From positions 1-53,701 of the forward strand of contig MEYT01000042.1 of assembly GCA_001774105.1 (NCBI GenBank): a stretch of 53,701 nt of DNA. The letters run 5' to 3'. Source of the DNA: Candidatus Azambacteria bacterium RIFCSPLOWO2_01_FULL_46_26. GTDB lineage: Bacteria > Patescibacteriota > Minisyncoccia > UBA9936. Below the pieces are notes generated by a model. The model saw nothing but the letters and a program-made list of their open reading frames with translations, was not told the DNA's origin and did not search any database. Made by a program: the position numbers and the translations under genes. Shown here one piece after another: positions 6,849-51,188 of the stretch (positions within the stretch are counted from its first letter, which is position 1; every line of letters starts with the position of its first letter).

Positions 6849-6877
6849 TAAAGGTTTTGTTACCAAAAATCCTGCGC

Positions 6878-30680: not shown

Positions 30681-30717
30681 CAAGACCCGACACAAAACTT
30701 ATTACGTGCGGGATAAA

Positions 30718-30794: not shown

Positions 30795-33700
30795 CTATTT
30801 CTTTGGAGCGACTTCTTTGATTTCCGGCAATTTGACGTTGACCGGGATGGATTTGTTCAAGAGACAGCTGAAGCCGTCGCTGTCGGTAACTTTCAACGAA
30901 ACCGATTTGTTTGATTTTTCCGCGACTTCATTGAAAGTAATTTTCGGATTTTGAACTGTCTCGCATCCGGTCGCCGGGGTCTTGCAAATCGCGTCTTGGA
31001 AAGTCCAGAGCCAATCCGAGATTGACGTTCCGCCGTAAACAATTGATTTGTCTTTGAATTCCACCGTTTCAAGAGCCGAAGGAGTTTTGGGTGTCCATTC
31101 AAAATCAACTCTTGGATATTGATGAGCGGCTGTGCCGAACGACGGGCCGTTAACCCAGGAAGATTCGCTGTTTTCGGTGTCCCAGATCTTGGCTCGCCAA
31201 TAATAAGTCGTGCCATAATTTAACTTTCCCGAAGGGACGGTGTAGGTACGGCCGCTTGACGCGACTTTCCCGGTATCAACTTCGGCCGGGAACGGAAAAA
31301 CGGGATCGCTGTCAACCTGAACCTGATAAGCGCTCTGGGTGGGAACGACAACCGTTACGCCGTAATTTGTTCCATTGAAGCGAATCCAGCCAATGTTTTC
31401 CGAACCCCAGACATACCCTTCCAGATTGTTGCCGTTTTTGTAGATGCCATAGGTTGAGCCGTTTGTGGCGGTGCCGGAAAGTTTTATCCAGCCGCGGTCG
31501 CCGCCGAAACTTTTGTAACGAAGCACTCTTGCCCAACCGGTTACCTGATTGTTTGACAAGTTCAATTTCGCGCGGCAATTACCCGAGCAGGGCGCGCCGG
31601 AGATATTTTCATCGCTTGAGTTAATCGCGCCGTCGCCGTTATAATCGCCGAAACTGATCCAGCCGATTCTTGAAGACCATGCGTAACCGGAAAAATTTCC
31701 GTTCCCGGAATCAATTTTAACGCTGTAAGCGGACATGGCGGTTCCGGCCGCCGGACAGCCGGAGCTGCCGTTTGATTTGCCGTCATTGTCCGTATCGCAA
31801 TTTGACGAGTTGAAGCTTATCCAGCGGATGTTTGTTGACCATGCCCATCCTTTTGAAAACCACATGGCGGAGGAAAGATCCCAGGAAAGCGTCGGCTGCA
31901 AAGCGGCAACACAAGAGTCGCCGGGAATAACGGTTAGATTGGTTGGAACAACGCTTACGCCTGGCGCGGCCACCGCCACGGTCGTAAAATTTAAAATCGT
32001 TCCTTTTGAAGTGCCTGAACTGTTTGAAGCCGCGGCTCTGAAGTAATAGGTTGCGCCGGAGGAAAGACCGGAAATTGACGCGCTGTAACTAACGGCCGAT
32101 GTTCCGCTACCGAGATTTTGAGTCGGCGAGGTGGTGTTAAAAGTTGAAAGGGAAGCGGAAGTCCCCCATTCAAACCAGGCGCTTGTTGCCAAGCCGTTCG
32201 GATTTGCCGAACCATTTAAAGCGGCGCCGTTGGCCGTAACCGAACTTACGGGATTTGTCGATACGCCTGGAGAGTTCGCGTTAAAATTCGCGGTTACCGA
32301 TTGAGCGGAATTCATCGTTACGACGCAGATGCCGGTCCCGGAACATCCGGCGCCGGACCAGCCGGTGAAGGTTGAGCCGCCGGATACCGAAGCGGTGAGA
32401 GTGACCGATGTGCCGTCAATATAGTTTTCGGAACAATCAGCGCCGCAATTTATACCCGCCGGAGACGAAGTCACGGTGCCGGAACCGGAGCCTGATTTGG
32501 AAACGGTAAGGGTTTTTGTGTTAAAAGTTTGGCCGAAAGCCGCGTTCACCGATTTATCCGCGTCAATATTAACGGTACAGGTTGTCCCGCTCCCCGTACA
32601 AGCACCCGTCCAGTTTAAAAATACGGCGCCGTTGGTATTAGAAGCGGTTAATGTCACCGAAGTTCCATAATTGTAGACCTCGGAACAATCAGCGCCGCAA
32701 TTTATGCCCGAGGGAGAGGAGGTCACGGTGCCGTTGGCGGCGCCCGCGGAAGATTTGGTGACCGTAAGAGTTCTTTTAGCTATTGTCAAAGTATAAGTTG
32801 TTTTATAGATCTGCTTTATACTAAGATACTTATCTGTTGCCTCAATTGTAATAGGATAAACTCCCGGTGTTGCTCCTCCGCCGGCAGTAAAGGTTAAAGT
32901 TGAATTGCAAGTAGGCGTGCACGAAGATAAAGAAAAAGCAGCGGTGACTCCTGACGGCAAACCGGAAATACTAAAATCAACAGGACCAACATTTGGCCCG
33001 CCGCTTACATGAGTGACGGTTACAGTCGTTGAAACAGCAGTTTCTTTTCCTAAAACTATTTGTCCTGAAGCGGGATTAACTCCTGTTGAAACATCGCGAG
33101 TGGTGTAAGAAACAATTGAACCAAAACCCTTCCCTCCAGAATTTTCGGCAATAGCGCAGTAGTAATAGGTAGTAGTGCGGGAATGAGAAAGACCTACGCC
33201 CGCGGTATTAAAAGAAACTGAACTTGTCCCGCTGCCAAGAGATTTTTGAGTGTTAGTGAGTTCAGGATACCTGTATCCAAAAGTATCATTACAAGAACCG
33301 GGATTGGTGGAACTGTACCGAAACCAAGCTGTCGTGGCGAAGCCATTGGGATTAGCCGTGCCATTAAGTTGCGCGTAGTAGGAAGAAACATCACTAGCCG
33401 GAGAAGTGGTAACCGTAGGGGGCACGGGGAGAGAAGGCCCAAAAGCTCTGAGTTCGTAAGTATAATGCCTGGCGACCGCGTTATACGGCGAACCATAATT
33501 CGCCTTTCCTGTCGCTTTGATTCTGATTGCCGAAACATTGGACCACGAACCCGTTTGTGTGTTTGTTTTCGTGGACGCCAAATTTATCGTATTTTCGGTT
33601 CCAGTCATTACATCTAGCCAATTACCTCCGATGTTTAACGCCACGATCCACGATACTGAAGGGCTATACTGGCCTAATTCAAATCTGTGGGCAATTTCTA

Positions 33701-34007
33701 CTTTATTCAAGCTAACCGCTTGAGGAAAAGTTACCAAAGCACTGTACGAAAAATTACAATTTGTAATATATGATACGCATTCGCCTTCATAATAAGTGGT
33801 GGTACTATCATTATCTCTGATATTATTAGGTACGCCATTAACTTTCGCAACAGATGTGCCGGAATCTAATGCGCCGGAAGCTGTTGAACCGGGATCAAGA
33901 CTCCAATTCACGTCAGCCGCCAGAACACCGTTAATTCCAAAAAAACCGAAGCCGATAAGGGCGGTGAAAATAATTACCGAAAATAAAAGCGCGAGGTTCT
34001 TTTTCAT
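30795..34007 (-). CDS. Giant secreted multidomain surface protein (lectin-like N-terminal domain, Fn3-like domains, two InlB-B-repeat-like Cys modules, four GW repeats, PKD-like C-terminus)
   Basis: 1070 aa.
- Signal/anchor MKKNLALLFSVIIFTALIGFGFF.
- The N-terminal domain ends HYTYELRAFG (discoidin-like).
- Two Fn3-like units: LNG.ANPNG.AT.AWF...GTTYY.
- Two units G.VTSSP.GINCGADCSE.Y..GTSVTLTAS...F..W.G.C.G...C.V.
- Four G[WY][AV]W[SG]xxIGWI[SR]F-type repeats.
- C-terminal FEWTPKTPSALETVEFKD (PKD-like). Confidence 0.8.
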   Translation of the reverse strand: MKKNLALLFSVIIFTALIGFGFFGINGVLAADVNWSLDPGSTASGALDSGTSVAKVNGVPNNIRDNDSTTTYYEGECVSYITNCNFSYSALVTFPQAVSLNKVEIAHRFELGQYSPSVSWIVALNIGGNWLDVMTGTENTINLASTKTNTQTGSWSNVSAIRIKATGKANYGSPYNAVARHYTYELRAFGPSLPVPPTVTTSPASDVSSYYAQLNGTANPNGFATTAWFRYSSTNPGSCNDTFGYRYPELTNTQKSLGSGTSSVSFNTAGVGLSHSRTTTYYYCAIAENSGGKGFGSIVSYTTRDVSTGVNPASGQIVLGKETAVSTTVTVTHVSGGPNVGPVDFSISGLPSGVTAAFSLSSCTPTCNSTLTFTAGGGATPGVYPITIEATDKYLSIKQIYKTTYTLTIAKRTLTVTKSSAGAANGTVTSSPSGINCGADCSEVYNYGTSVTLTASNTNGAVFLNWTGACTGSGTTCTVNIDADKSVNAAFGQTFNTKTLTVSKSGSGSGTVTSSPAGINCGADCSENYIDGTSVTLTASVSGGSTFTGWSGAGCSGTGICVVTMNSAQSVTANFNANSPGVSTNPVSSVTANGAALNGSANPNGLATSAWFEWGTSASLSTFNTTSPTQNLGSGTSAVSYSASISGLSSGATYYFRAAASNSSGTSKGTILNFTTVAVAAPGVSVVPTNLTVIPGDSCVAALQPTLSWDLSSAMWFSKGWAWSTNIRWISFNSSNCDTDNDGKSNGSSGCPAAGTAMSAYSVKIDSGNGNFSGYAWSSRIGWISFGDYNGDGAINSSDENISGAPCSGNCRAKLNLSNNQVTGWARVLRYKSFGGDRGWIKLSGTATNGSTYGIYKNGNNLEGYVWGSENIGWIRFNGTNYGVTVVVPTQSAYQVQVDSDPVFPFPAEVDTGKVASSGRTYTVPSGKLNYGTTYYWRAKIWDTENSESSWVNGPSFGTAAHQYPRVDFEWTPKTPSALETVEFKDKSIVYGGTSISDWLWTFQDAICKTPATGCETVQNPKITFNEVAEKSNKSVSLKVTDSDGFSCLLNKSIPVNVKLPEIKEVAPKK

Positions 34008-34040
34008 GATAATGTCTCTTAAAACTTGAAATATGAATTG

Positions 34041-34589
34041 CTAAGGCAAGACCAACAATGACACTTTTACGGCGTTGAATTCCTGCTTTGTTTTGATGTT
34101 TTCCGCGGCTTCAGCCGTGACGGTATCCCCGACTTTAAGGTCGGATAGCGGAATTTTCTTTTCTTCAGGCCCGACCGGCACGCCTTCCGGCCCTATTATC
34201 GGAGAGGGCGGCATAGTTAAATCAACCTTGACTATCGGCGCATCCTTGCCGACGGTAATTTTCCTTATTTCTTTTTTCGGCTCCTTGCCCGGCAAAATCC
34301 TTTCGGTCAAAGAAGAAATTTCAAGTTCAATCACATCGCCTTGAATTGATTTTATCTCGCCCGAAACCGAGCGGATGTCCTCCGGCAGTGGCGGATAAAA
34401 CACCTCCAGCGCCCTGTTGAGCTCGGAGACCTCTTGGGCGCTTTCTTGCTTGCCCGTCTCTACCCCGGCCTGCTTGCCGGATTCATACCCCGATTTTTGG
34501 CCATACCAAAAACCCGCGCCAAAACCAACGGCACAACCGACAGTAATCGCGACAACCGCGATAAGAACGTATTTCAAATAATTTTTCAT
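34041..34589 (-). CDS. N-terminally anchored hypothetical protein
   Basis: 182 aa with one TM helix. It is co-directional with the pilus cluster. No family recognised. Confidence 0.6.
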   Translation of the reverse strand: MKNYLKYVLIAVVAITVGCAVGFGAGFWYGQKSGYESGKQAGVETGKQESAQEVSELNRALEVFYPPLPEDIRSVSGEIKSIQGDVIELEISSLTERILPGKEPKKEIRKITVGKDAPIVKVDLTMPPSPIIGPEGVPVGPEEKKIPLSDLKVGDTVTAEAAENIKTKQEFNAVKVSLLVLP

Positions 34590-34629
34590 ATTGTGTCTTA
34601 AAACTTATAACTTAAAACTGACATGAGGT

Positions 34630-34694
34630 GTCATCCTGAACGCAGTGAAGGATCTCAAGAGATTCTTCCCCCGCCTTGGCGGGGTCAGAATGAC
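34630..34694. repeat. GTCATYCTGA...TCAGAATGAC multi-hairpin element, intergenic copy
   Basis: GTCATCCTGAACGCAGTGAAGGATCTCaagaGATTCTTCCCCCGCCTTGGCGGGGTCAGAATGAC. Confidence 0.85.
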
Positions 34695-34711
34695 AGCTCG
34701 CTTTTATTATA

Positions 34712-34957
34712 TCACTTTTTAATCAATTTCGGTACTATCTGCTCGTAATCCTCCAGATTGAAACGGACAACCTGGCTCTGAACCGCGATTTCGTCAACTT
34801 CAAAACTCTTTACGATCGCGCCGGCGATGAAAGCAATCGCCTTATAAAAAGTAAAAAATATCAGCGATATCACAATCAAAGACACTATCAGATAAACCTG
34901 TTCGCGAAGTTTAATCTGCTTTAATTTCGTTAAAATGTTTAAATTTTGCACTATCAT
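34712..34957 (-). CDS. Small single-TM protein downstream of the pilO-like gene
   Basis: 81 aa with a central TM helix. It lies 15 nt after the preceding gene. Confidence 0.55.
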   Translation of the reverse strand: MIVQNLNILTKLKQIKLREQVYLIVSLIVISLIFFTFYKAIAFIAGAIVKSFEVDEIAVQSQVVRFNLEDYEQIVPKLIKK

Positions 34958-34972
34958 TTTAATTTTTATTAA

Positions 34973-35506
34973 TTACGGGGCCGTATATATTTTCCCCGAA
35001 TAATTGATTCTTGAAGGATTGTAAAGCCCCTGAAGTCCGACCAATGCAATCTCGGAAAATTTGACGAAATGAGGCAATTTTTCCGCCTCTTTCAAATAGT
35101 TCAAAAAATTGGGCAATGTTCCGTCAATCGTCGCCCGGAAAACCATTCCGGCCGGCTCGCCGCCTTCAGCCGAAGTTATCTGCTGGCCGATGGCCAACTG
35201 GGCGGCCAAACCGTTCTTCTCCGCCAGTTTGTCCAATTTATTGAAATAAACGAACAAATCGTCGGCTTTGGGCAGGGCGCTTTCCAAAACCGGGAGATTG
35301 GGCTCTATGATTTTATAATCGGCCTGAAGGCGCGTCAATGATTCGGCTTTTTGATCCCAAACCGCGATAAGGGTTCTTTTTGTCCTTACGGCCTCGCTAT
35401 TGACGGCAATCTGTCTTGATGTATAAAAAACCACTCCGCCGGTCAAAATCAAAACCAGCGTTAATCGCAAAACGACGGATAAAAGATATTCTTTAAAAAT
35501 ATTCAT
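34973..35506 (-). CDS. pilO: PilO-like type IV pilus alignment protein
   Basis: 177 aa. An N-terminal TM helix is followed by a coiled segment and an alpha/beta C-terminal domain. It lies immediately after pilM/N. The call rests on architecture and position, not on a strict motif. Confidence 0.6.
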   Translation of the reverse strand: MNIFKEYLLSVVLRLTLVLILTGGVVFYTSRQIAVNSEAVRTKRTLIAVWDQKAESLTRLQADYKIIEPNLPVLESALPKADDLFVYFNKLDKLAEKNGLAAQLAIGQQITSAEGGEPAGMVFRATIDGTLPNFLNYLKEAEKLPHFVKFSEIALVGLQGLYNPSRINYSGKIYTAP

Positions 35507-35524
35507 ATTTTCTGGCGAATTTAT

Positions 35525-37036
35525 TTATCTTGCTTTCCATTTGAATGAAATCGTGAATAGGATATTCTGCGTTTGAACCAAACTTCCCAGCGGCAAATTC
35601 ACGTCGGAGAAATCGGGAGAGTTTTCAAGCTTATTTTTGAAAAGCAGGGCCGCGTCGCGGCTTGACGCGATGCCGGTAATGCTTATGGGCTGGTCCAAAG
35701 AGCTTAAACCTAACTGCGTCAGATTGATACCCGGAGGTGCCAAAGCCAAGATTTTTTCAATGACAGGAGAAACGAAATTGGCGTTTTCGGCGGCCGGAAC
35801 CATTATTTTCAGTTTTTCGTTGATTTCCGACGCTTTCTGTTCCAAATCGCCCAAAGTAACGGGTCCAGAAATAATTCCTCTTGTTTCAAGCTGCCGATCC
35901 ACTCCCGTCAAAATAGAGTTAAGAAAAAAATGCGAGCCGACGAAAAGAATCATAATCGCGATGGACAGCGCGGCGATTATGTCGCTCCATAAAGTAAAGT
36001 AAGAAACAAACTTTCTCTTCGCGTAAGCCGCTTCGGTTCCCACGGGCATTAAACTGTTTATCGCGTCCTCAACTCTCGGAATCAATCCTCTTAGAGCCGT
36101 GCCGACCGCTATCAACCATGAATCGTCAAACAAAGGAAAATTTTTGGCCCTATGAATCTTTAATTTAAACGGCTGATGCTCAAGGCCGGTTTTGGTTTGC
36201 AATTGATCAAGAATTCCCGCTTTCACGGCTTCCGGAGCGAGCAATGTAAATTTTTTAAGAACGGTTTCCTTGTGTTCCGACTGAAAAAAATTCACGGTTA
36301 AATTTATCTCTTTCGCCAAAACATCCAAAATGCGTTCCCGGGTTAATTCGGCTTCTTTTTCCTTAGCGAGATGAGCCGACCAAGCAACAAAGCGATTAAA
36401 TCTTACGAAATTTTTCTGCGTGATAACCAAATTAATTCCCTCTTCGTTCAAATACGCGATTAATCCCGCCTCGTCTTCAAAATTTTCAACCAGCCGAGCC
36501 AAACTTTGCGACGGCGATTCAAAAGCCAAAGCCATAAAACCCGCTTTATTCAGCGCGTCAATGTAAGCGTCCGCTCTCTCTTTTCTGACCGCTTCCAGCA
36601 GGACTTCCCTGCTTATGACGGAATCAATCTGAAACTCGCTCTGTTCCTGCCAATCAAGATAAGTATCTGATGGAGCAACCGGCAAGACCGTGCTGATGTT
36701 CAAATTCATCGCGTCTTTTATTTGCTCCGGGTTTAAATTCGGAAATTGAAAAACTTTTGAATAAATGCCTTCCGGTGGCAGGGAAACGATCACGTAAGGC
36801 GTTTTATCCAAATATCCGCCCGCTTTTTCTTTTATTTTTTTCAAGGCCGAAATTAAGCCCTCTTTATCTTTGACTTCGCCGTTTTCAAGAATTGACGGCG
36901 CCAAGCGAACGCCGGCTTGAACAATTAAGGATATTGTTGAATCCGTTTTATGAAAAAGCAAAAGCCGCAGGGACGAATCCGATATCGCCAGCCCCGCGAT
37001 TTTTTCTCCCGGATAAAATAGGTTAACTATATTCAT
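35525..37036 (-). CDS. pilM: PilM-PilN fusion (actin-like ATPase domain + TM + PilN-like domain)
   Basis: 503 aa. The N-terminal ~330 aa is PilM/FtsA-like (GLAISDSSLRLLL, two subdomains). This is followed by the TM helix LWSDIIAALSIAIMILFVGSHFF and a periplasmic-type PilN-like tail. Confidence 0.7.
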   Translation of the reverse strand: MNIVNLFYPGEKIAGLAISDSSLRLLLFHKTDSTISLIVQAGVRLAPSILENGEVKDKEGLISALKKIKEKAGGYLDKTPYVIVSLPPEGIYSKVFQFPNLNPEQIKDAMNLNISTVLPVAPSDTYLDWQEQSEFQIDSVISREVLLEAVRKERADAYIDALNKAGFMALAFESPSQSLARLVENFEDEAGLIAYLNEEGINLVITQKNFVRFNRFVAWSAHLAKEKEAELTRERILDVLAKEINLTVNFFQSEHKETVLKKFTLLAPEAVKAGILDQLQTKTGLEHQPFKLKIHRAKNFPLFDDSWLIAVGTALRGLIPRVEDAINSLMPVGTEAAYAKRKFVSYFTLWSDIIAALSIAIMILFVGSHFFLNSILTGVDRQLETRGIISGPVTLGDLEQKASEINEKLKIMVPAAENANFVSPVIEKILALAPPGINLTQLGLSSLDQPISITGIASSRDAALLFKNKLENSPDFSDVNLPLGSLVQTQNILFTISFKWKAR

Positions 37037-37051
37037 ACGCGCTTCGCTCGT

Positions 37052-37156
37052 GCGATACTAATATACTAATGCATACTAATGATACGAATGGATACTAATG
37101 TTTTTTTATTCGTATTTATTAGTATAATTCGTATGCATTCGTATATTGGCATCGCG
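37052..37156. repeat. ATACGAAT/ATACTAAT-unit palindrome, copy B (5' of pilM/N)
   Basis: GCGATACTAATATACTAATGCATACTAATGATACGAATGGATACTAAT ... ATTCGTATTTATTAGTATAATTCGTATGCATTCGTATATTGGCATCGCG. Confidence 0.9.
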
Positions 37157-37582
37157 TTATTCAATTTCTTCCCAACTCTGGTGGGTCACTTTTCCGTAAG
37201 TGTCCACGTTTACGACATTGCTGATTTTTCTTTTTATGTTTCCGACCGAACCAATGACGATTACGGTCTTTGGGTCGGTCCCGGTTACGGTAATTTCGGC
37301 CTTTTTATTGTCGTCAAAAGTCAGGGTGCAAACGCCGGCCGAACAGGTTAAATCATCCGCGCTCGTGTAATTTTTGTTCCGCGTGATTTTCATTAAAGCG
37401 TCTTTAAGCCCGGCTTCGGTCAGATAAAAACTCTCAAGCGATTTTCTCTGCGCGAAAGAAATTGTGCTCTCAATCACGCTGGTGGTCGTTAATATCAAGC
37501 CGACGGCCAGGAGGATGAGAGTAATTATTAGGATGGAAGGGAGAGCGGCTATGCCCTTTTGAGAACATATAACATTTGACAT
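37157..37582 (-). CDS. PilX-like minor pilin (non-canonical prepilin N-terminus, no Glu5)
   Basis: 141 aa. MSNVICSQKGIAALPSILIITLILLAVGL resembles the PilX_N pattern (RG.AL...L..L). Confidence 0.6.
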   Translation of the reverse strand: MSNVICSQKGIAALPSILIITLILLAVGLILTTTSVIESTISFAQRKSLESFYLTEAGLKDALMKITRNKNYTSADDLTCSAGVCTLTFDDNKKAEITVTGTDPKTVIVIGSVGNIKRKISNVVNVDTYGKVTHQSWEEIE

Positions 37583-37592
37583 ATGACATTTG

Positions 37593-38081
37593 TTAATTCC
37601 TCAGAACGGCCGTTGTCGTGGCCGAAGACGAATAAATATAATCAGGCCGTTCTTTCGCGTCGTAATCAACCGTCACGCTTAGCTGAACGCTCTTCTTCGC
37701 CGGAGAGGGGTTGTTAATTGAGGCAAAAAAAAGTTTGCCGATGATAACTTTGTCGCTTGTCAAAGCCGTTGCAGGCGAAGCCCCTTCCTGAATGGTTAAT
37801 GCGTTTCCGGTGACGGTGAAGATCGTGGGATTTTTCGCGGAATCGGTCATTGCCAGCGAAAGAGTGTTTCCCGAAGCGGAATTCACGCCGGAAGCCGAGT
37901 GAATTACCTGTGACAGGCGTTCCATTGTTCTTGCCAAATTCTGCCTCACCTCTCCCCTTGCTTCCGTCTGCGCCCTCACCTTCGCCAAAGTTATGAAGAA
38001 ATCGGTCAAGACAAGCGAAATAACGGCGAAGATGGCGATGTAAATTATCAATTCAATAAAAGTAAACCCTTTTTGATTCAT
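37593..38081 (-). CDS. Prepilin-type N-terminal cleavage/methylation domain protein (minor pilin)
   Basis: MNQKG|FTFIELIIYIAIFAVISL is a class III signal with Glu at +5. Confidence 0.85.
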   Translation of the reverse strand: MNQKGFTFIELIIYIAIFAVISLVLTDFFITLAKVRAQTEARGEVRQNLARTMERLSQVIHSASGVNSASGNTLSLAMTDSAKNPTIFTVTGNALTIQEGASPATALTSDKVIIGKLFFASINNPSPAKKSVQLSVTVDYDAKERPDYIYSSSATTTAVLRN

Positions 38082-38083
38082 AT

Positions 38084-38899
38084 TTATGGAGACCAGTTGA
38101 TAATCACGTCATCCACCCTCGGGCTTGCAAGGCCCGTGTTGCTCGGCTTTAAAATAATTCTGTATCTGAAATAACGCATATTATTGTGATAAGCCGGGCT
38201 GATTCGGATCGGAATATCAGGCCCGCTCGGTTCGTAGTAGCTCGTCGGCAAGCCGTCAGGACCTAAAAAATTCCAGGGGCCGTTCGGGTCGTTTGAGGTG
38301 GCGAACTGAAATAGGACGCGCGAGGTCGCGGGCAGTTGCCCTTTCCACATTATCGCGTTGTACCCAGCGCCTTCGGGAACCTGCGTATCATAAGTTGAAG
38401 AATCAAGCTGACCGGAGGTCAAAAATTTCGGCAAAAAAGTGTAAGTGAGCCGGATTTTTGCGGAAAGCAAGGACGCAGCGGCTCCGTCAAGCTTCAAATT
38501 AAGCGTAAAAGACCAATTACCTCCCTCGTTAATAACCGAAGCCAGATAAGAAGTGGCGTCATATCGTATCTTGAAAGGATCTGTTCTTTGCACGGAATCA
38601 AGAACGAACGTTTTTGCTCTTGCTTGAGCAAAAGTCGGATCGTCTATTGAGACCTGAAGGGTGGGGTTGGGAGTTACTTGATTTGTCGCAACACCGCGTA
38701 TCTCAACTTCCGCGCTTTTGATGAGCGGCTGGATTTCTCCGATAAACACGGTGAAAGGCATGTCTATCTGATCCCCGGGATTACGCAAAACCGTCTCCTG
38801 TCCGACAAAATACTGGATTTGCTTCATCGCGGCGGCGTGCGCCGAGAACGCGGCAAGAAATAAGAACGACAGTGATAGAAGGAAAAGTTTCAACTTCAT
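38084..38899 (-). CDS. Secreted protein of unknown function (pilus-cluster embedded)
   Basis: 271 aa with signal peptide MKLKLFLLSLSFLFLAAFSAHA. Its N-terminal domain is homologous to the C-terminus of the upstream 902-aa protein. The gap to its neighbours is 2-4 nt. Confidence 0.75.
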   Translation of the reverse strand: MKLKLFLLSLSFLFLAAFSAHAAAMKQIQYFVGQETVLRNPGDQIDMPFTVFIGEIQPLIKSAEVEIRGVATNQVTPNPTLQVSIDDPTFAQARAKTFVLDSVQRTDPFKIRYDATSYLASVINEGGNWSFTLNLKLDGAAASLLSAKIRLTYTFLPKFLTSGQLDSSTYDTQVPEGAGYNAIMWKGQLPATSRVLFQFATSNDPNGPWNFLGPDGLPTSYYEPSGPDIPIRISPAYHNNMRYFRYRIILKPSNTGLASPRVDDVIINWSP

Positions 38900-38903
38900 A
38901 ATT

Positions 38904-41612: not shown

Positions 41613-41617
41613 GGCGC

Positions 41618-42178
41618 TTATCTTATCTCAAAACCCGTCACTCCCTTCTCCGTCCTGACAGCCCAGAACCATTTTTGAAACGCGCGGTCGTAATATAAAT
41701 TCATTTCCTTAATTGTCTCGTTTTTAAAATTCGGCAAGGCCAAGAATTGGCCGGCGACTTCCGCACTGTCGCGCCAGTCGGAAGGCAAACCCGAACCCCA
41801 TATCCCGCTTTCCGCAATTTCGGTATTCTCAATTTTTTTATTTTTTACCGTTACCAGATAATTATATTTCGTCGGACTGCCCACGGGACCGCCTTGCGCC
41901 TCCGTGTAACTCTTTGAATAAAACTCCGCCTGCCACGCTTCGCTCTTTCCTTCCTTCACCTCGCCGATTGTTTTCAAAAAGACCGGCTGAACGTCCGCCT
42001 GCCATTTTTTCGCTTCCGCGGACGCCAAATCATACGCCTGCTTTGCCGTCATTGATTCCTTCGGCGGAGTTTTTTCTATCGTGTATTGCTTCTCTCCAAG
42101 CGTGGCGAAATACAGCACTGCGACTAAAATTAAAACAAACAACAATCCAAAAATAATAAGGTTTCGTTTGGTAAACAT
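41618..42178 (-). CDS. N-terminally anchored hypothetical protein (pilus-cluster embedded)
   Basis: 186 aa with one TM helix. There is a 1-nt gap to the upstream minor pilin gene and 5 nt to the downstream gene. Confidence 0.65.
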   Translation of the reverse strand: MFTKRNLIIFGLLFVLILVAVLYFATLGEKQYTIEKTPPKESMTAKQAYDLASAEAKKWQADVQPVFLKTIGEVKEGKSEAWQAEFYSKSYTEAQGGPVGSPTKYNYLVTVKNKKIENTEIAESGIWGSGLPSDWRDSAEVAGQFLALPNFKNETIKEMNLYYDRAFQKWFWAVRTEKGVTGFEIR

Positions 42179-42179
42179 A

Positions 42180-42833
42180 CTATTGTTCCCTTCTTAATGT
42201 AATGCTCCATGGCGGAGTGTTATAATCCAGATTCGCGTCGTCGGTAAAAAAATCATAGCCGAAGTTCGTAACCGGGCCCGCCACGCCGATGGCGCCGAAC
42301 CAAGCGCTCTGAATTGCGGTTTCGTTAGGCCAGCGGCTGAAATAATCGTTTAGAGTTATTAAACCTTCGTTCCAAGTTACGATTGCCGCCATTTTTTGGG
42401 TTGAAGGGTCTTCGTAAGTTCCGGTGCCGGAGGGGGTAATTTTTTCGGTTATTTCGTCGCGATACGCGTTTTCAAAATACAAATACCGCGTGTAAGTTAC
42501 ACCTCCTATTATAACATTTTCCTGCCCCGCCTGTAACACCCACTTATCAACCGGCGTTGTTTGGTGAACAGGATAATATGTGTTTGTCTGGCTTTTGTTT
42601 AACAAATAAATATTGTGCCACTTCTCGCCGCTGACCGCCCGAACGGTTTCCATCATTTCTTCCGCCAGATTTTTGGCAATCGTTTCCCTGCCGCTTATCT
42701 GAACCGACCGCAAACTCACGCCGATCATTTGAGCCGCGAGACCCGCGATAACGGCTGTAATGGCGACGACAAGAAGAAGCTCTATTAAAATTTGTCCGCG
42801 GTGATTGAGAAACATAAAAATTTTTAAATCCAA
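42180..42833 (-). CDS. Prepilin-type N-terminal cleavage/methylation domain protein (minor pilin)
   Basis: ...NHRG|QILIELLLVVAITAVIAGL is a class III signal with Glu at +5. 217 aa. Confidence 0.8.
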   Translation of the reverse strand: MDLKIFMFLNHRGQILIELLLVVAITAVIAGLAAQMIGVSLRSVQISGRETIAKNLAEEMMETVRAVSGEKWHNIYLLNKSQTNTYYPVHQTTPVDKWVLQAGQENVIIGGVTYTRYLYFENAYRDEITEKITPSGTGTYEDPSTQKMAAIVTWNEGLITLNDYFSRWPNETAIQSAWFGAIGVAGPVTNFGYDFFTDDANLDYNTPPWSITLRREQ

Positions 42834-42837
42834 AATT

Positions 42838-43302
42838 CTATTCCGAGATTCTCCCTTCCCTGCTCACCGTAATCGTCCTGATGTTCGCCGTGTCGCTTGT
42901 CAGAAAAACCGCGACTGAAACATCGGCGGCGACCTTGCCGGTGTTTTTTAAAAACACGACATCAAGAGTGTTTTCGGAGGACGGCTGGCTGAAATTCACG
43001 CGCTCGTCAAGATAAATCATTTCCTGAATTTGACCCGCGCTGAAATCGCTCGCGGTTGAAAAAAGCTGATAATAATGGGCGCCGGAAACCGGATTAACGA
43101 AATGAATTCCCCATCTCAAGCCGTTCTCTCCCGACATTGCTTTTGCCTGCGCTTTTCTTAACTGCAGAATTATTTCTCCCGCTCCCTGATCCAGCGAAGC
43201 CGAACGAAAATAACCGACCCCAAGCATTGTGGTAAGAGAGGCCAAGATCGCCAAAATTCCGACGACGATAATAAGTTCAAGCAAAGAAAAACCCTTTTGC
43301 AT
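42838..43302 (-). CDS. Prepilin-type N-terminal cleavage/methylation domain protein (minor pilin)
   Basis: MQKG|FSLLELIIVVGILAILASL. 154 aa. Confidence 0.85.
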   Translation of the reverse strand: MQKGFSLLELIIVVGILAILASLTTMLGVGYFRSASLDQGAGEIILQLRKAQAKAMSGENGLRWGIHFVNPVSGAHYYQLFSTASDFSAGQIQEMIYLDERVNFSQPSSENTLDVVFLKNTGKVAADVSVAVFLTSDTANIRTITVSREGRISE

Positions 43303-43317
43303 AAACGCTTCGCTTAC

Positions 43318-43452
43318 GCGATGCCAATATACCGCGATGCTAATATACTAATGCATACGAATTATACCAATAAATGCGAATAAGAAATACCGGTCTTCAT
43401 TCGTATTATTAGTATGAATTCGTATATTGGCATCGCGGTATATTAGTATCGC
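43318..43452. repeat. ATACGAAT/ATACTAAT-unit palindrome, copy C (between pilC and the minor-pilin operon), with doubled termini
   Basis: GCGATGCCAATATACCGCGATGCTAATATACTAATGCATACGAAT ... ATTCGTATTATTAGTATGAATTCGTATATTGGCATCGCGGTATATTAGTATCGC. Confidence 0.9.
43361..43369 (-). promoter_or_regulatory. Extended -10 (TGGTATAAT) in the centre of the pilC/minor-pilin palindrome
   Basis: The plus strand reads ATTATACCA. It lies 58 nt upstream of ATG 43302. Confidence 0.5.
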
Positions 43453-43456
43453 ACTA

Positions 43457-44674
43457 TTACCCTATCGCTCCCAACATTTGGTAAATCGGAAGGATTACCG
43501 ACAACGCGATAAAAGCGACTATCAATCCCATAATCAAAAGCAATATCGGCTCAAGAAGAGTAACCATGTTCTTTAGAGTGGCGTCAACCTCTTCGTCGTA
43601 AAAAACGCTTAGAGTGTCCAAAATAAGGTCCAAACTTCCGGCCTTTTCGCCGATGCCCACCATGTTGCTGATTAAACGCGGAAAAAATTTTTCGTGATGC
43701 CGAAACGCCGAACCCAAAGAAATCCCCCTTGCGACGTCTTCCTCGGCGATTTTTATGAAGATTTCTTTGTATCTGATGTTGCCGATGGAATTAGCCGTAA
43801 TGTTCAAAGCCTCAATAATCGGGATGCCACTTTTTAGCAAAATCGCCAAAGTGTGCAAACTGCGCGCGAAAATTATTTTTTTCATCAGACCTTTGATAAT
43901 CGGCGCCCTGAACATAATCTCGGTCAGCAATTTTTGCCCGAGTATCGTTCTCCATGCGAAAATCAAGGAGACAACAAGGATGGCGAAAAATACGCCAAGC
44001 ACCGTAACGTGAGCGGAAACCCAATTGCTCGCGTCTATCAAAAACTGGGTAATGGCCGGCAGTTTTATTCCGGTTTCCTGAAAGGTCTTGGTCAGGCGCG
44101 GCAAAACCACGGTCAAAAGCAGGACGACGATGCCGAAACTGGCCGTTAGCAAAATAGCCGGATAAACCATCGCGCTCCTGATTCGGCTTTTGAGCTCATA
44201 CTCGGTTTTCATCTGAACGCTCAACCGCTCAAGAACCTCAATCAAATTGCCGCTTTTTTCTCCGGCGCTGACAACGCTGATGAAGAGCGTGGAAAAATGG
44301 CGGGGAAAATCGCCCAGAGCCGAAGACAGAGTCCGGCCTTTTTCAAGGTTCGCTTTGATACTCGCGTAAATTTTTTTCAAAACCGCTTTTTCGGTGTCAA
44401 AAATCAGAATGTCCATCGCTTCAATGACTCCCACGCCCGCTTTAAGCATTATCGCGAGATGCTTGGTAAAAAAAATTTTGTCCAAAAGAGTGATTCTCTG
44501 CAAAAAAACAATCTCTCTCTTCACGGCGGCCGCTCCGGCTTTTTTTTCTTTCACCGAAATCGGCGTCAATCCCTGCCGCGAAAGATAGTTCAAAACCGCC
44601 TCCTTGTTGGAGGCGTCGTATTCGCCTTCCTTCATTATGCCGCGTCCGTCAACGGCGGTATAGAAATATAACAT
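43457..44674 (-). CDS. pilC: Type IV pilus platform protein PilC (GspF family)
   Basis: 405 aa with two GspF-type repeats, three TM segments and the typical C-terminus LPIYQMLGAIG. Confidence 0.9.
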   Translation of the reverse strand: MLYFYTAVDGRGIMKEGEYDASNKEAVLNYLSRQGLTPISVKEKKAGAAAVKREIVFLQRITLLDKIFFTKHLAIMLKAGVGVIEAMDILIFDTEKAVLKKIYASIKANLEKGRTLSSALGDFPRHFSTLFISVVSAGEKSGNLIEVLERLSVQMKTEYELKSRIRSAMVYPAILLTASFGIVVLLLTVVLPRLTKTFQETGIKLPAITQFLIDASNWVSAHVTVLGVFFAILVVSLIFAWRTILGQKLLTEIMFRAPIIKGLMKKIIFARSLHTLAILLKSGIPIIEALNITANSIGNIRYKEIFIKIAEEDVARGISLGSAFRHHEKFFPRLISNMVGIGEKAGSLDLILDTLSVFYDEEVDATLKNMVTLLEPILLLIMGLIVAFIALSVILPIYQMLGAIG

Positions 44675-44684
44675 TTGATATTTG

Positions 44685-46403
44685 TTATTCTTTTATCACT
44701 CTAAGCACTTCTTCAATCGAAGTGACTCCTTTTTCCACCTTGGTCAAACCGTCTTCAAACATAAAAATCATTCCTTCCTCCATGGCTATCTTTTTCAATT
44801 CCGACGCCGTTAGTCCTTTGTTAATTAAATCCCTGATGCGCGGCGAAACGTTCAACGCCTCAAAAATTCCGATCTGTCCGGAATATCCCGTGTGTCCGCA
44901 CACGTCGCAACCGGCGCCCTGAAAAATAATCGCCGGGATGACTCTTTTAATTTTTCCCTCCCCATAGACGCTCCTCAATTGCTTTTCAATTTCTTTTTTC
45001 ACCTCCGCCGGCGTCTCAATCGAACGAACGCAATGAATGCAATTTTTTCTGACCAATCGCTGGGCAATGATAACGTTAAGGGTTGAGGAAATAAGAAACG
45101 CCGGAATTCCCAAATCCAAAAATCTCGGTATGGCGGAAATCGCGTCGTTGGTGTGCAGGGTTGAAAGCATGAGATGTCCGGTCAGGGCCGAATTAATGGC
45201 TATGTCCGCCGTTTCATTATCGCGGATTTCTCCGACCATAATAATGTCCGGATTTTGCCTCATCAAAGAACGTAAACCGTTCGCGAAAGTAATATTTGCC
45301 CTTGGATTAACCTGCGTCTGGCTGATGCCCTGAATGTCGTATTCAATCGGGTCTTCAATCGTGGAAATGCTCACTTCCGGCTTGTTGAGAATTTGCAGCA
45401 GGGCGTAAAGCGTCGTTGTTTTTCCGCTTCCGGTCGGCCCGGTCACCAGAATCATGCCGTGCGTTTTTGTTATATTTTCTTCAATAATCGCTTTTGTTTC
45501 GCTCAATATCCCAAGATCCGTCAAATTCAGCGGCCGCGCCGAACTTCTTAAAAGACGCATAACGGCTTTTTCGCCGTAAAACGTCGGCATTATGGAAACG
45601 CGGATGTCAACCGGCTGCTCTTCGGCCTTGAACTTAAACCTCCCGTCCTGGGGCGCCCTGTGTTCGTCAATTTTCAACGCGGCTAAAATTTTAATTCGGG
45701 CGATAATCCCCGGGTGGACTTCTTTCGGCATGGCAACGATGTCCCTCAGAATCCCGTCTATGCGATAGCGCACCGTGACCCCTTCCGCCGACCGTTCAAA
45801 AAAAATATCCGAGGCGTTTGAAATCGTCGCGTACTCGACAATGTTATCCACCATTGAGATGACCGGCATATTTTCCGCCAGGCGTTCGAGATCTTTCCCT
45901 TCTTTTGTCTGAGTCAGCGTCTGGGCGATGTTTTCTTCAATAATTTTTTTAAATTCTTTGGCAATGTCTTTTTTGTAAATCTTGAAGGCAAACCTTAAAT
46001 CCGAAGGCGTTGCCAGATACGGCTCAATCTCTCCACCTAATTTTTGCTTTAAATATTCAATCGTTTCCAAATCCGCCGGATCTTCCATTGCCACCCTTGT
46101 CAAACCGGGCTCTTTTTCAAAAACAACGACTCTTTTCTCCTTGGCCAGCGATTCCGGCAAAAGCGCCAAATTTTTCGGGTCAGGAGTCCGTTCTTTCAAA
46201 TTCGCGAGCGGCACGTTAAGATACTGGGACAAAAGTTCGGCAAAATATTCCTCGGTCATCTCTCCTCTGCCGATGAGAATATTGATTATGGTCTGACCGG
46301 AACGCGCCGCTTCGGTCTTGGCATTCTCAAATGTCTCCTCGCTTATAAGGCCGGATTCAAGAAGAATTTGTTTTAATTTTTGTTCGGGTAAATGCATGCT
46401 CAA
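44685..46403 (-). CDS. pilB: Type IV pilus assembly ATPase PilB (GspE family)
   Basis: It has an N-terminal GSPII_E_N-like domain, Walker A (VTGPTGSGKTTTLYA), Asp box, Walker B (IMVGEIRD), His box (LSTLHTND) and a tetracysteine motif (CIHC...CDVCGHTGY). Confidence 0.95.
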   Translation of the reverse strand: MSMHLPEQKLKQILLESGLISEETFENAKTEAARSGQTIINILIGRGEMTEEYFAELLSQYLNVPLANLKERTPDPKNLALLPESLAKEKRVVVFEKEPGLTRVAMEDPADLETIEYLKQKLGGEIEPYLATPSDLRFAFKIYKKDIAKEFKKIIEENIAQTLTQTKEGKDLERLAENMPVISMVDNIVEYATISNASDIFFERSAEGVTVRYRIDGILRDIVAMPKEVHPGIIARIKILAALKIDEHRAPQDGRFKFKAEEQPVDIRVSIMPTFYGEKAVMRLLRSSARPLNLTDLGILSETKAIIEENITKTHGMILVTGPTGSGKTTTLYALLQILNKPEVSISTIEDPIEYDIQGISQTQVNPRANITFANGLRSLMRQNPDIIMVGEIRDNETADIAINSALTGHLMLSTLHTNDAISAIPRFLDLGIPAFLISSTLNVIIAQRLVRKNCIHCVRSIETPAEVKKEIEKQLRSVYGEGKIKRVIPAIIFQGAGCDVCGHTGYSGQIGIFEALNVSPRIRDLINKGLTASELKKIAMEEGMIFMFEDGLTKVEKGVTSIEEVLRVIKE

Positions 46404-46407
46404 AACT

Positions 46408-47013
46408 TTAAATCTTAAACTGCCCTATCCCAAGATAAGGCGCGAGATAATCGCCGAAAATCAGAATTATCAGCGCCGCGACGATAATGAACAATCCCGA
46501 AGGCAAGCGGTATTGGGAATCCCGATAAATAATCAGATTTCCGAAATTGACCAAAATCATCAGAATAATCGCGAGTCCAAGATACATCAAAAAATTCGGC
46601 CAGCCGGAAGTCAAACCCGCGAGTGCCAGCAAAAATATTTCTTCTTTTTCAAAAAAACGCTCGCCCCTCAAATAGTTTAAAACCCAAGCCGCGAAACCGG
46701 AAACCAGCGAAAATCCGACGGCCGCGACCGGGCCTGCCCAAAAATGAAGCCAGACATAGGAGAGGAAATAAGTGATTGGCTGATACGGCGGCAGCAGATA
46801 CATTCCCGGCGGAGTGGACTTAAAAGAAAAATACTGCAAAAAAGTCAAAAAACCGGCTTGAAAAAAAAGAAAGACGATGACCAGCAAGACAAAAATTTGA
46901 GCCAATTTGACCGAGAGCCGTTTGGAATAAAAAAACCAGCCGGCGATGAGCAGAATCAGGGCGTATAAAACCAGTGAAATTATCGAAAGATTGTTGTATA
47001 AAACGGCGAGCAT
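46408..47013 (-). CDS. Polytopic membrane protein of unknown function between pilin and pilB
   Basis: 201 aa with about 6 TM helices, tightly packed (4-5 nt gaps). It occupies the slot where a prepilin peptidase is often found, but I could not find the two-Asp/GxGD A24 pattern. Confidence 0.65.
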   Translation of the reverse strand: MLAVLYNNLSIISLVLYALILLIAGWFFYSKRLSVKLAQIFVLLVIVFLFFQAGFLTFLQYFSFKSTPPGMYLLPPYQPITYFLSYVWLHFWAGPVAAVGFSLVSGFAAWVLNYLRGERFFEKEEIFLLALAGLTSGWPNFLMYLGLAIILMILVNFGNLIIYRDSQYRLPSGLFIIVAALIILIFGDYLAPYLGIGQFKI

Positions 47014-47018
47014 GCGAT

Positions 47019-47738
47019 TTAAAAGTCATTCGTGTCCGGCAAAATCGTCAAATTGCTTCCCACTTCAAACAATTTCGCGTTGTTTCCTCCGTCTTTCGCG
47101 GCCTTGTCGTCTTCGCCGCTTTCGCCGTAAAACTCGGATTCCAGCCGGCCGTTGATTTCAAACGTATGCGGCTTTGTTGACGCCAAACCGGTTCGGCAGG
47201 CATAACGGTAAATTAAATCAAGATTCGTGATATTGCTGACGGAGTTAACTCTATTGACCGGATCAACCGGCAAATTGGAAATAGGCGCGCCGCCCTTGAT
47301 TGAATCCAAAGGAGTCGGAATCCAGCCGCTGCCGTCAACTTTGTAAATGTCGGTGTTTGAAACCTGTTTAAAAGCGACGAAGGCCGAACCGACTGGCGGC
47401 AGGTCGGTTATGACGGCCCCCGGGCTATCCGAAGGATAACTTACCCAAATTAAATCGCTTCCGGTTCCGCCGGCGCAATAAGTGTCCGAATTAACCGCGT
47501 TGTCAAGTTTCGGCTGATTCGTTGAAACAACATACAAACCGAGAGCGGCCCGCAATGTCGTCATGTCCGAAAGCCGCTGGGCGTCGCGGCTCTTTCTCAA
47601 AATCTCGGCCGGGTTCAGCAAAAAAACGACCATTGATATCAATATCGCCAAAATGGCGATGGTTATCAAAAGCTCCAACAACGTGAATCCCTTTTTTGAA
47701 TTTTGAACTACCTTTTTATTTGTATCTATTTGTATCAT
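47019..47738 (-). CDS. Type IV pilin (paralog 1)
   Basis: MIQIDTNKKVVQNSKKG|FTLLELLITIAILAILISMVV. ATG 47738 is preferred because the longer ORF translates the promoter and repeat. The extended -10 lies at 47773-47781. Confidence 0.88.
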   Translation of the reverse strand: MIQIDTNKKVVQNSKKGFTLLELLITIAILAILISMVVFLLNPAEILRKSRDAQRLSDMTTLRAALGLYVVSTNQPKLDNAVNSDTYCAGGTGSDLIWVSYPSDSPGAVITDLPPVGSAFVAFKQVSNTDIYKVDGSGWIPTPLDSIKGGAPISNLPVDPVNRVNSVSNITNLDLIYRYACRTGLASTKPHTFEINGRLESEFYGESGEDDKAAKDGGNNAKLFEVGSNLTILPDTNDF

Positions 47739-47767
47739 TAGTATGCATTCGTATATTGGTATCGCAT
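47739..47767. repeat. Half copy (one arm) of the same element, forming the 5' UTR of pilin paralog 1
   Basis: The plus strand reads TTAGTATGCATTCGTATATTGGTATCGCA. Degenerate units ATTTGTATC x2 continue into the first codons of the pilin (MIQIDTNK). Confidence 0.8.
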
Positions 47768-47772
47768 TATTT

Positions 47773-47781
47773 ATTATACCA
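47773..47781 (-). promoter_or_regulatory. Extended -10 (TGGTATAAT) of pilin paralog 1
   Basis: The plus strand reads ATTATACCA. It lies directly after terminator 47797-47820 and 34 nt before ATG 47738. Confidence 0.6.
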
Positions 47782-47796
47782 AATCCCGCGCAAAAC

Positions 47797-47820
47797 AAAA
47801 AGCCCCTCAAGGGGCTTTTT
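47797..47820 (-). terminator. Rho-independent terminator after pilin paralog 2
   Basis: AAAAAGCCCC-tcaa-GGGGCTTTTT. Confidence 0.88.
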
Positions 47821-47840
47821 GTGTTTAAGGCCTAAAAACA

Positions 47841-48602
47841 TTAGAATCCGTCGGTGCCCGGCAGAATTGACAGGTCTGTGCCGACCTCATACAGATTTGA
47901 GTTGTTTCCTCCGTCTTTAGCCGCTTTGTCGGAAGCGCCGCCCGGTTTGAAGTCGTCGGACTCCATTCTGGCGTTAAGCTCAAAAGTCGTGGAATTGCTC
48001 GCGGCCCTGCTTGAACGGCAGGAGTAGCGATAAATAAGGTCTTCGTTGGCAACCGAAGCAAGATCGGTCACCGCGTTTGTCGGATCAACCGGCAAATTGG
48101 CAATCGGAGGTCCGCCTTGAATGGCATTAAACTGAACCGGAATCCAGCCGTTTCCGTTGGTCTTATACAAGTCCGCGACTACGATTTGATTGAAGTCAGC
48201 AGATGCAAGATTTGCCATGTTCGTGCTAATGCTGGTATCCGTGATATCGCTGGAATCAGGCAAACTCACCCAAATCTTTCTCAAATTGGAAGCCGCTCCG
48301 TTAAGCGGTTCGCCGAAATCCGGCGTATTACCGTCAAACCTATCAAGACAATTTGTGTCGCTGAAGGCGGTTCCGTCCAATTTCGGTTGGCCTATCTGGG
48401 TAACGTACAAAGCAATGGCCGCCCGCAAGGTGTTCATGTCCGAAAGCCGCTGGGAATCGCGGGTCTTCTTCAGGGTTTCGGCCGGGTTTAAGACCAGCAC
48501 CACGACGGTTGCCAAAATCGCGAGTATCGCGATAACTATCAAAAGCTCAAGCAAAGTAAAACCTTTGGTTCTCTTTGCGATTGTTAAATTTAAATTTCGC
48601 AT
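47841..48602 (-). CDS. Type IV pilin (paralog 2)
   Basis: MRNLNLTIAKRTKG|FTLLELLIVIAILAILATVVV. It shares SRD.QRLSDM.TLRAA..LYV and the C-terminal DKAAKDGGNN..L.EVG..L.ILP.T..F with paralog 1. It has its own promoter and terminator. Confidence 0.9.
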   Translation of the reverse strand: MRNLNLTIAKRTKGFTLLELLIVIAILAILATVVVLVLNPAETLKKTRDSQRLSDMNTLRAAIALYVTQIGQPKLDGTAFSDTNCLDRFDGNTPDFGEPLNGAASNLRKIWVSLPDSSDITDTSISTNMANLASADFNQIVVADLYKTNGNGWIPVQFNAIQGGPPIANLPVDPTNAVTDLASVANEDLIYRYSCRSSRAASNSTTFELNARMESDDFKPGGASDKAAKDGGNNSNLYEVGTDLSILPGTDGF

Positions 48603-48691: not shown

Positions 48692-48700
48692 ATTATACCA
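48692..48700 (-). promoter_or_regulatory. Extended -10 (TGGTATAAT) of pilin paralog 2
   Basis: The plus strand reads ATTATACCA. It lies about 89 nt upstream of ATG 48602. Confidence 0.5.
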
Positions 48701-48745
48701 CCATCACCCCGCCTTGGAAAGTTTTTTTTGGGAGGGCTGTGGATA

Positions 48746-51186: not shown

Positions 51187-51188
51187 GT

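Follow-up and report, generated by a model that had tools for sequence, protein, structure and literature searches.

A Patescibacteria-wide C-terminal domain and a candidate pilus-tip adhesin assembly in a type IV pilus locus of Candidatus Azambacteria

Three proteins, named p186, p902 and p271 for their lengths in residues, are encoded between minor-pilin genes of a type IV pilus locus in Candidatus Azambacteria, an ultra-small groundwater bacterium of the Parcubacteria within the Patescibacteria, and this arrangement raises the question of whether they form part of the pilus tip or are passengers in its gene cluster. The locus occupies 30795-48602 of contig MEYT01000042.1, within a stretch of 53,701 nt that was analyzed at its full length and is referred to as the window; labels such as L001 denote the related loci with which it was compared. 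Patescibacteria account for a large share of bacterial diversity, and to our knowledge all of their cultivated members live attached to host cells. What is known of host recognition comes largely from one Saccharibacteria strain, and type IV pili are the only attachment or motility organelle that has been experimentally shown in the group (PMC12206443, PMC11665869). The original prediction, made from the letters of the window, held that the trio may be stoichiometric partners of the minor-pilin priming or tip complex rather than passengers. The trio and the minor pilins around it are, in transcription order:

42838..43302, minus strand: minor pilin m154, with the signal MQKG/FSLLE and a match to PF07963
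42180..42833, minus strand: minor pilin m217, PilV-like, with the non-canonical signal G/QILIE and weak N_methyl and PilV matches
41618..42178, minus strand: p186, N-terminally anchored, 186 aa, present in Ndom-type loci only; candidate assembly helper
38904..41612, minus strand: p902, 902 aa, with an N-terminal anchor or signal, an unknown domain, three IPT/TIG domains, an Fn3-like domain and a C-terminal Ndom (775-902)
38084..38899, minus strand: p271, 271 aa, a pilus-associated non-pilin with a Sec signal, Ndom (25-157) and Cdom (162-271)
37593..38081, minus strand: minor pilin m162, with the signal NQKG/FTFIE and a match to PF07963 (E 1.2e-7)
37157..37582, minus strand: PilX/GspK-like minor pilin, 141 aa, with a match to PF14341 PilX_N (E 2.6e-5) and without Glu5

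Domains were called with Pfam on the open reading frames (ORFs) of the window, and with NCBIfam as well for proteins that were otherwise unmatched. Neither collection gave a significant match to p271, to p186, or to two further proteins of 81 and 182 aa (p81 and p182) encoded downstream in the cluster, in keeping with the original prediction, which had recognized none of the four as a described pilus component. The 30 listed homologues of p271 are all hypothetical proteins from Patescibacteria. Their N-terminal halves vary, and what they share is a C-terminal domain of ∼110 residues with the near-invariant end ...RYFRY...P.VDDVIINWSP, which we call Cdom. A scan of a genome collection returned 131 relatives, of which the best 80 loci were analyzed to give 78 non-redundant Cdom proteins, domain hidden Markov models and gene maps. 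The genomes behind these 80 loci are those of Lipton-, Harrison-, Wolfe-, Yonath-, Nomura-, Azam-, Terry- and Falkowbacteria, together with other Patescibacteria metagenome-assembled genomes; the exceptions to such an origin among the homologues and loci are two short contigs binned under other names. The modules that vary beside the constant Cdom include Gly-Trp (GW) repeats, Ndom, NHL, LamG and Fn3 arrays. A search of PDB sequences with the family profile found no relative, and no description of the domain family was found in the literature. Cdom defines a Patescibacteria-wide family for which Pfam and NCBIfam hold no model.

The Cdom genes have a preferred position among pilus genes, most often with a PilV-like minor-pilin gene (the m217 type) on one side and a PilX-like gene on the other. 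Pilus genes lie six or fewer genes away from 74 of the 78 non-redundant Cdom proteins; an m217- or m154-type pilin gene is immediately upstream in 40/78, and a PilX-like gene follows within two genes downstream in 55/78. The canonical order is pilin, p201 (a membrane protein described below), PilB, PilC, m154, m217, the Cdom protein, PilX-like and PilMN. Between m217 and the Cdom gene the median gap is 2 nt, with 25 of 31 gaps at 20 nt or less and several 4-nt overlaps.

The most direct link between Cdom and the pilus is provided by gene fusions. In at least nine of the fetched genomes, an m217-type minor pilin and Cdom are a single polypeptide. The fusion is plain in L036, L055, L060 and L070; it includes GW repeats in L027 and L053 and an NHL propeller in L038 and L034, and the pilin of L013 carries a Laminin_G_3 (LamG) insert ahead of Cdom. 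In the alignment, the stand-alone m217 proteins, that of the window among them, end after a conserved '...GSIxL' strand, and the fusions run on at exactly this point. A profile search of a set of 5.8 billion proteins yielded dozens more full-length fusions, with variants containing LamG, NHL, Kelch, LVIVD or PA14, and several of these are labelled prepilin-type, PilV or PulG by their sources. An AlphaFold2 (AF2) model of the L060 fusion (mean predicted local distance difference test, pLDDT, 86.5) begins with an N-terminal helix of 65 residues, which is followed by a pilin head and then, across a disordered linker, by Cdom. GW modules were also seen fused directly to canonical minor pilins without Cdom, in L034 (5236-6741, together with Fn3) and in L040 (an m217-type pilin with GW, 390 aa); because of these fusions the GW module appears to be displayed on pili in some lineages.

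The fusions bear on an alternative in which the trio are ordinary surface or envelope adhesins that are mounted on the cell rather than on the pilus and are co-transcribed with pilus genes for a shared task in host attachment. Proteins of that kind would be expected to look much as p271 and p902 do, with Sec-type signals or anchors rather than class III signals, a hydrophobic anchor at the N-terminus of p902, and Fn3, TIG and carbohydrate-binding-module (CBM)-like folds of types common in cell-surface proteins; the compactness of Patescibacteria genomes also makes tight gene spacing weak evidence. We nevertheless regard this alternative as unlikely, because many genomes encode Cdom as a covalent fusion with a bona fide pilin, because GW is fused to canonical pilins, and because the slot between two minor-pilin genes is kept across distant lineages.

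The N-terminal domain of p271 ties it to p902. Residues 25-157 of p271 (Ndom) are homologous to the final 128 residues of p902 (BLASTP E 8e-6, profile E 1.2e-26), the protein that had been described from the letters as an IPT/Fn3 protein and in which Pfam finds three TIG domains and an Fn3-like domain. Giant relatives of p902, 950-1900 aa in length, always end in Ndom, with 0-2 residues following it and the motif SAK...TY.Y.P, and the Cdom protein in loci with such giants carries one or two Ndoms. The giant Ndom protein is present in 13 of 17 Ndom-type loci as compared with 0 of 61 others (p about 1e-12), and p186 in 14/17 versus 0/61 (p=6.6e-13). A search of PDB sequences with the p186 family profile was empty. 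Locus L008 has the same order as the window (m217, p186, giant, Ndom+Cdom, m162, PilX-like, PilMN, PilO, p81), and in other loci p186 and the giant have changed places. Conserved synteny of the trio with minor-pilin genes in relatives, on which the original prediction had been made to depend, is therefore found both for the Cdom family as a whole and for the two Ndom-type partners. The proposal that the trio are tip-complex partners rather than passengers is strengthened by this synteny and by the m217-Cdom fusions. The p186 and p902 genes are confined to the sub-lineage whose Cdom protein carries Ndom.

The predicted structure of p271 (AF2, pLDDT 91.6, predicted template modeling score, pTM, 0.76) contains a signal helix followed by two β-sandwich domains. 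Foldseek searches with the whole model returned generic double-β-sandwich matches with TM scores of 0.35 or less. At the level of the single domain, taken from the fusion model, Cdom matched sandwiches of the carbohydrate-binding-module type, including CBM86 (6sgf, TM 0.59, root-mean-square deviation 4.0), the CBM32 entries 4zxe and 7d2a, and the C-terminal domain of PNGase. A fold of this type, in the part of the protein that is conserved as a structural component would be, invites the reading that Cdom proteins bind wall glycans and form or anchor a passage through the cell wall, in place of a secretin and its peptidoglycan-binding partners. Pfam identified no secretin in any ORF of the 53.7-kb window, as such a passage would lead one to expect. 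Highly variable adhesion-type N-terminal modules would, however, be out of place in a conduit, fusion to a minor pilin puts the domain on a filament subunit, and we know of no need for a secretin-like wall conduit in the type IV pili of monoderm bacteria; we think it quite improbable that Cdom serves this purpose. Still harder to credit is a scheme in which the proteins are cargo exported by a type II secretion-like piston, as are TcpF or CofJ in type IVb pili. The genes do lie inside a pilus operon, and cargo of the CofJ type binds the tip minor pilin (PMC8179133), but since the window lacks a secretin gene and an outer membrane is assumed to be absent, Sec export by itself would release the proteins; a pilin fusion cannot be released cargo, and both p902 and p186 appear to be membrane-anchored.

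We consider it probable, on comparative sequence evidence, that the Cdom protein and its partners form an adhesin assembly at the pilus tip that resembles PilY1 in its role and is not homologous to it; the rival readings fit less well because of the pilin-Cdom fusions. A priming complex of minor pilins at the tip is established for type IVa pili and for type II secretion, and the four minor pilins of the window match the core set of four by which type IVa pili and type II pseudopili are primed. The four minor pilins would form such a priming complex and end up at the pilus tip. After export of p271 by Sec, Cdom would join this complex beside m217 and play the carrier role that the C-terminal domain has in PilY1, with Ndom as the displayed module in the Azambacteria-type lineage. 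p902 probably attaches through its own Ndom to that of p271, which would present its TIG and Fn3 domains to a host cell or surface, and the membrane-anchored p186 probably helps to fold or load the proteins of the trio. The contacts would thus run from the minor-pilin complex with m217 to the Cdom and Ndom of p271, and from there to the Ndom and TIG/Fn3 domains of p902, with p186 as the helper. A more specific version can be offered only tentatively: the Parcubacteria-type tip may be built of two exchangeable pieces, with a universal Cdom that is either fused to or docked on a PilV-like pilin, bears interchangeable modules for host binding and takes the place of PilY1 by means of an unrelated fold, and the Azambacteria type may be a chain of three proteins (pilin, Ndom-Cdom adaptor and giant adhesin) that is loaded by p186.

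Several points weigh against a tip assembly of this kind. In the window the Cdom protein is split from the pilin, and the signals of p271 and p902 are of the Sec type, not the pilin type; module and pilin in one polypeptide are seen only in relatives. Because Cdom was the bait by which loci were collected, the counts given above describe Cdom-bearing loci. Reduced genomes often have closely packed genes, and such spacing is no proof of the translational coupling that had been suggested for the trio. Domain placement in the model of the L060 fusion is uncertain because its pTM is only 0.57. Since Cdom is retained even in pilin fusions, its role exceeds docking to m217, and Cdom may contact other tip subunits or, going by its modeled CBM-like fold, may itself bind a glycan or other ligand. 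Finally, the roles given to p186 and to the Ndom-Ndom contact are ones that we infer.

Among known systems, PilC/PilY1 of Neisseria, Pseudomonas and Myxococcus is alike in being a non-pilin with a Sec-type signal whose gene lies among those of the core minor pilins, and in having a carrier domain that is conserved at the C-terminus and effector modules that vary at the N-terminus, both of which the Cdom family has. It is unlike in that p271, p902 and p186 have no PilY1 or Neisseria_PilC match in Pfam and that p271 is predicted by AF2 to consist of β-sandwiches, not the β-propeller of PilY1. We know of no description of PilY1 covalently fused to a minor pilin, a form in which Cdom does occur. 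A carrier-plus-effector logic, in which one unchanging module attaches a varying set of binding modules to the tip complex, has been described for PilY1 and for modular pilins (PMC8179133). The latter include two pilins of Streptococcus sanguinis, PilB, which carries a vWA module, and PilC, which carries a ConA-like lectin (Raynaud et al. 2021, PMC8179133), and pilins of the candidate phyla radiation are part of the same catalogue (PMC8179133). The fusions in relatives of the window likewise consist of a pilin with grafted LamG, NHL, Fn3 or GW modules; in contrast, the module-bearing proteins of the window are separate, and the family has an extra constant terminal domain, Cdom, that is without a database signature.

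In Nanosynbacter lyticus TM7x, a member of the Saccharibacteria, PilX2 is required for host binding and has been proposed to be a PilY1-like adhesin (PMC12206443). The resemblance lies in PilX1 and PilX2 being minor pilins of Patescibacteria with non-canonical signals and extra C-terminal domains (a β-jelly-roll in PilX1, a propeller in PilX2), whereas the TM7x type IV pilus locus 1 contains pilT and pilD (PMC12206443) and the window cluster encodes neither product. In the type IVb pairs CofB/CofJ and TcpB/TcpF, a tip minor pilin with β-sandwich extensions is the adapter for a separately encoded partner (PMC8179133), as proposed here for m217 and p271; these belong to another pilus class, have no sequence relationship to the proteins of the window, and their partners are released as colonization factors. 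In Patescibacteria, type IV pili are already known, as are modular pilins and PilY1-like candidates. A searchable Cdom that marks a pilus-borne adhesin in Parcubacteria would allow host-binding modules to be catalogued from metagenomes and would supply targets for pull-downs, nanobodies and CRISPR interference (CRISPRi), and the natural pair of split and fused forms offers material for work on the attachment of non-pilin proteins to pilus tips.

The machinery that would assemble such a tip is encoded on both sides of the trio, in transcription order by:

47841..48602, minus strand: pilin 2, 253 aa, with the class III signal KG/FTLLE and a match to PF07963 N_methyl (E 1.6e-8)
47019..47810, minus strand: pilin 1, with the class III signal KG/FTLLE and a match to PF07963 (E 6e-9)
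46408..47013, minus strand: p201, polytopic membrane protein, 201 aa, in the slot from pilin to PilB
44685..46403, minus strand: PilB/GspE assembly ATPase, with matches to PF00437 (T2SSE, E 2.7e-127) and PF05157 (MshEN)
43457..44674, minus strand: PilC/GspF platform protein, with a match to PF00482 (T2SSF, E 1.4e-54) in two stretches
35525..37036, minus strand: PilM-PilN fusion, 503 aa, with matches to PF11104 (PilM_2) and PF05137 (PilN)
34973..35506, minus strand: PilO-like protein, 177 aa, without a Pfam match itself; its homologue in L001 has a weak match to PF04350 PilO

The window thus contains a PilB-type ATPase, a PilC platform, pilins with class III signals, and PilM, PilN and, weakly, PilO, all features of type IV filament machines, and Pfam agrees with the PilB, PilC, pilin, minor-pilin, PilX-like and PilM-PilN calls that had been made from the translations. 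N_methyl was found on five proteins (weakly on m217) and PilX_N on a sixth, and the signal motifs are visible in the sequence. Pilins 1 and 2 are the candidates for the major pilin. Pilin 1 probably starts at an internal ATG at about 47738 rather than at the TTG at 47810, and m154 directly follows PilC, a position that is conserved in related loci. The cluster had been predicted to have no recognizable secretin, PilT or prepilin peptidase, and for the window this was borne out by the domain searches: besides the secretin, no Peptidase_A24 prepilin peptidase was found in any ORF of the 53.7 kb, and no PilT-like second T2SSE ATPase, PilB being the sole T2SSE protein. In 86 related loci (up to ∼20 kb each) no polytopic ORF proved to be an A24 peptidase, and PilT-sized paralogues of PilB are essentially absent from the related loci; because of this shared absence, a pilus cluster without PilD and PilT appears to be the rule in the clade. 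pilT itself is reported to be well conserved across Patescibacteria (PMC12206443).

The region 30795-48602 holds 17 consecutive ORFs, all on the minus strand; all of the ORFs that had been predicted are present at their coordinates and on that strand, but the tally of nineteen must be read as 17 ORFs plus three non-coding elements. The intergenic gaps in transcription order are 30, 5, 4, 10, 154, 4, 1, 5, 4, 2, 10, 120, 18, 15, 122 and 33 nt, so that spacing is, as had been noted, mostly within 1-18 nt (11 of 16 gaps at 18 nt or less); elsewhere in the window, counting from coordinates, about 3 of 17 co-directional pairs are as close. The rest of the window consists of housekeeping genes, including those for GroEL, UvrA, UvrC, ClpP, RNase J, TrpRS, RecA and FtsK, which places the pilus locus on the chromosome. 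Close homologues carry the name Candidatus Azambacteria. We conclude that the region is a chromosomal, secretin-free type IV pilus locus of type IVa or Com-type build.

Of 44 related loci with PilB, 18 have the polytopic protein p201 in its slot between pilin and PilB, and an exhaustive profile search placed it in a family of 901 cluster representatives of uniform size (∼190-200 aa). No significant match to p201 was found in Pfam or NCBIfam, and its family profile matched no PDB sequence. Among 144 aligned members, E124 and E125 are the only conserved acidic positions; E125 is the invariant acidic residue and sits in an FFEPEE motif. p201 was considered as a prepilin peptidase, degenerate or otherwise, and rejected: 15 members searched at E≤10 gave no A24 match, the PDB profile search gave none either, and the two catalytic Asp residues, including that of GxGD, and a match to PF01478 were not found.

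Downstream of the PilO-like gene, the cluster as originally delimited contains three more genes:

34712..34957, minus strand: p81, small single-pass membrane protein
34041..34589, minus strand: p182, anchored ORF, lineage-specific
30795..34007, minus strand: p1070, surface protein, 1070 aa, with two InlB-B repeats, Ig/Fn3-like domains and a GW module at ∼719-900 (profile E 2e-17)

p81 is conserved behind the PilO-like gene in 10 of 17 Ndom-type loci, and L001 and L088 each have an 81-aa product there. The membership of the other two fares differently. No homologue of p182 was found in the 86 related loci searched, and counterparts of the same size (182 aa) occur only in the near-identical strain L088, in the same position, and in one further sample; the inclusion of p182 in the cluster is accordingly not upheld by conservation. 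A FliH-like match to p182 was discarded because it fell far short of the cut-off and reflects a coiled segment of low complexity.

For p1070, which had been predicted to be a lectin/Fn3/PKD protein and a second adhesin of the cluster, Fn3-like domains were found and no lectin or PKD model matched at E<0.01. Full-length orthologues occur only at 75% identity or more. In L087, a relative at 75%, the upstream neighbor of the p1070 orthologue is an unrelated Gly-rich repeat protein rather than a pilus gene, and the downstream neighbors, a 137-aa gene and FtsK, are conserved beside it. Since the orthologue in L087 is not adjacent to pilus genes, p1070 was rejected as a conserved cluster member, the case for a second adhesin is weakened, and membership in the cluster is doubtful. 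The link of p1070 to the pilus consists of the GW module, which in most other Parcubacteria forms the N-terminal half of a Cdom protein; judging from these sequences, the sharing of GW supports a common ligand-binding module and not operon membership. The 182- and 1070-aa genes are neighbors rather than proven parts of the pilus system.

In L088 the p1070 gene is called as two genes of 176 and 847 aa (4176-7197), a split that recurs in a second sample; because the first 588 nt (window 33420-34007) do not align, the N-terminal domain may have been swapped or frameshifted in that strain. Between the p1070 gene and FtsK lies a 135-aa ORF (window 30144-30551, minus strand) with an HExxH motif and weak SprT-like and WLM matches. 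Its place is taken in L087 by a gene of similar size (137 aa) and in L088 by an ORF of 101 aa.

Beyond the other end of the cluster, and divergent from the pilin genes, a 641-aa Wzy_C (O-antigen ligase-like) protein is encoded at 48895-50820 (plus strand; PF04932, E 1.7e-22). It may be a pilin O-glycosyltransferase of the PglL/TfpO type, and the search of related loci gave no homologue of it. It is followed at 50800-53258 (minus strand), just beyond the pilins, by a putative response regulator (128 aa) and histidine kinase (689 aa), as read from the translations. A gene of response-regulator size lies directly upstream of the pilin gene in L003 (3998-4297), L004 and L030, with a Pfam Response_reg match in L003 and L004, and because of these occurrences the ancestral cluster may have included a two-component regulator. 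In other loci the pilus cluster is interrupted by ORFs of the four-helix-bundle family PF05635 (23S_rRNA_IVP), in L003 (5513-5839) and L005 (4551-5597); one of these is inserted between p201 and PilB and another within or beside an m217-type gene.

The window sequence was detected in DNA metagenomes of groundwater, soil and sediment, and among these matches no RNA run was found. Because no RNA run matches, the operon boundaries rest on consensus scans, which overall did not rise above chance. The following non-coding features were located, three of them in the three largest gaps of the cluster:

48692..48720, minus strand: sigma-70-like promoter, the best match of the gene strand (10/12 with a TG extension), ∼90 nt upstream of pilin 2
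43318..43452, no strand assigned: palindrome C, with 57-nt arms, in the spacer from pilC to the minor-pilin genes
37052..37155, no strand assigned: palindrome B, with 48-nt arms
34625..34699, no strand assigned: hairpin element, inside the 122-nt spacer
30650..30681, minus strand: the strongest terminator-like hairpin, a 14-bp stem and T run after the 1070-aa gene

The total of promoter-like sites in the region is not above that of shuffled sequences, and the match at 48692..48720 is suggestive at most. Palindromes B and C are related to each other, being built of ATAC(T/G)AAT-like units, and divide the cluster into three blocks; they could be RNA-stability or attenuation elements.

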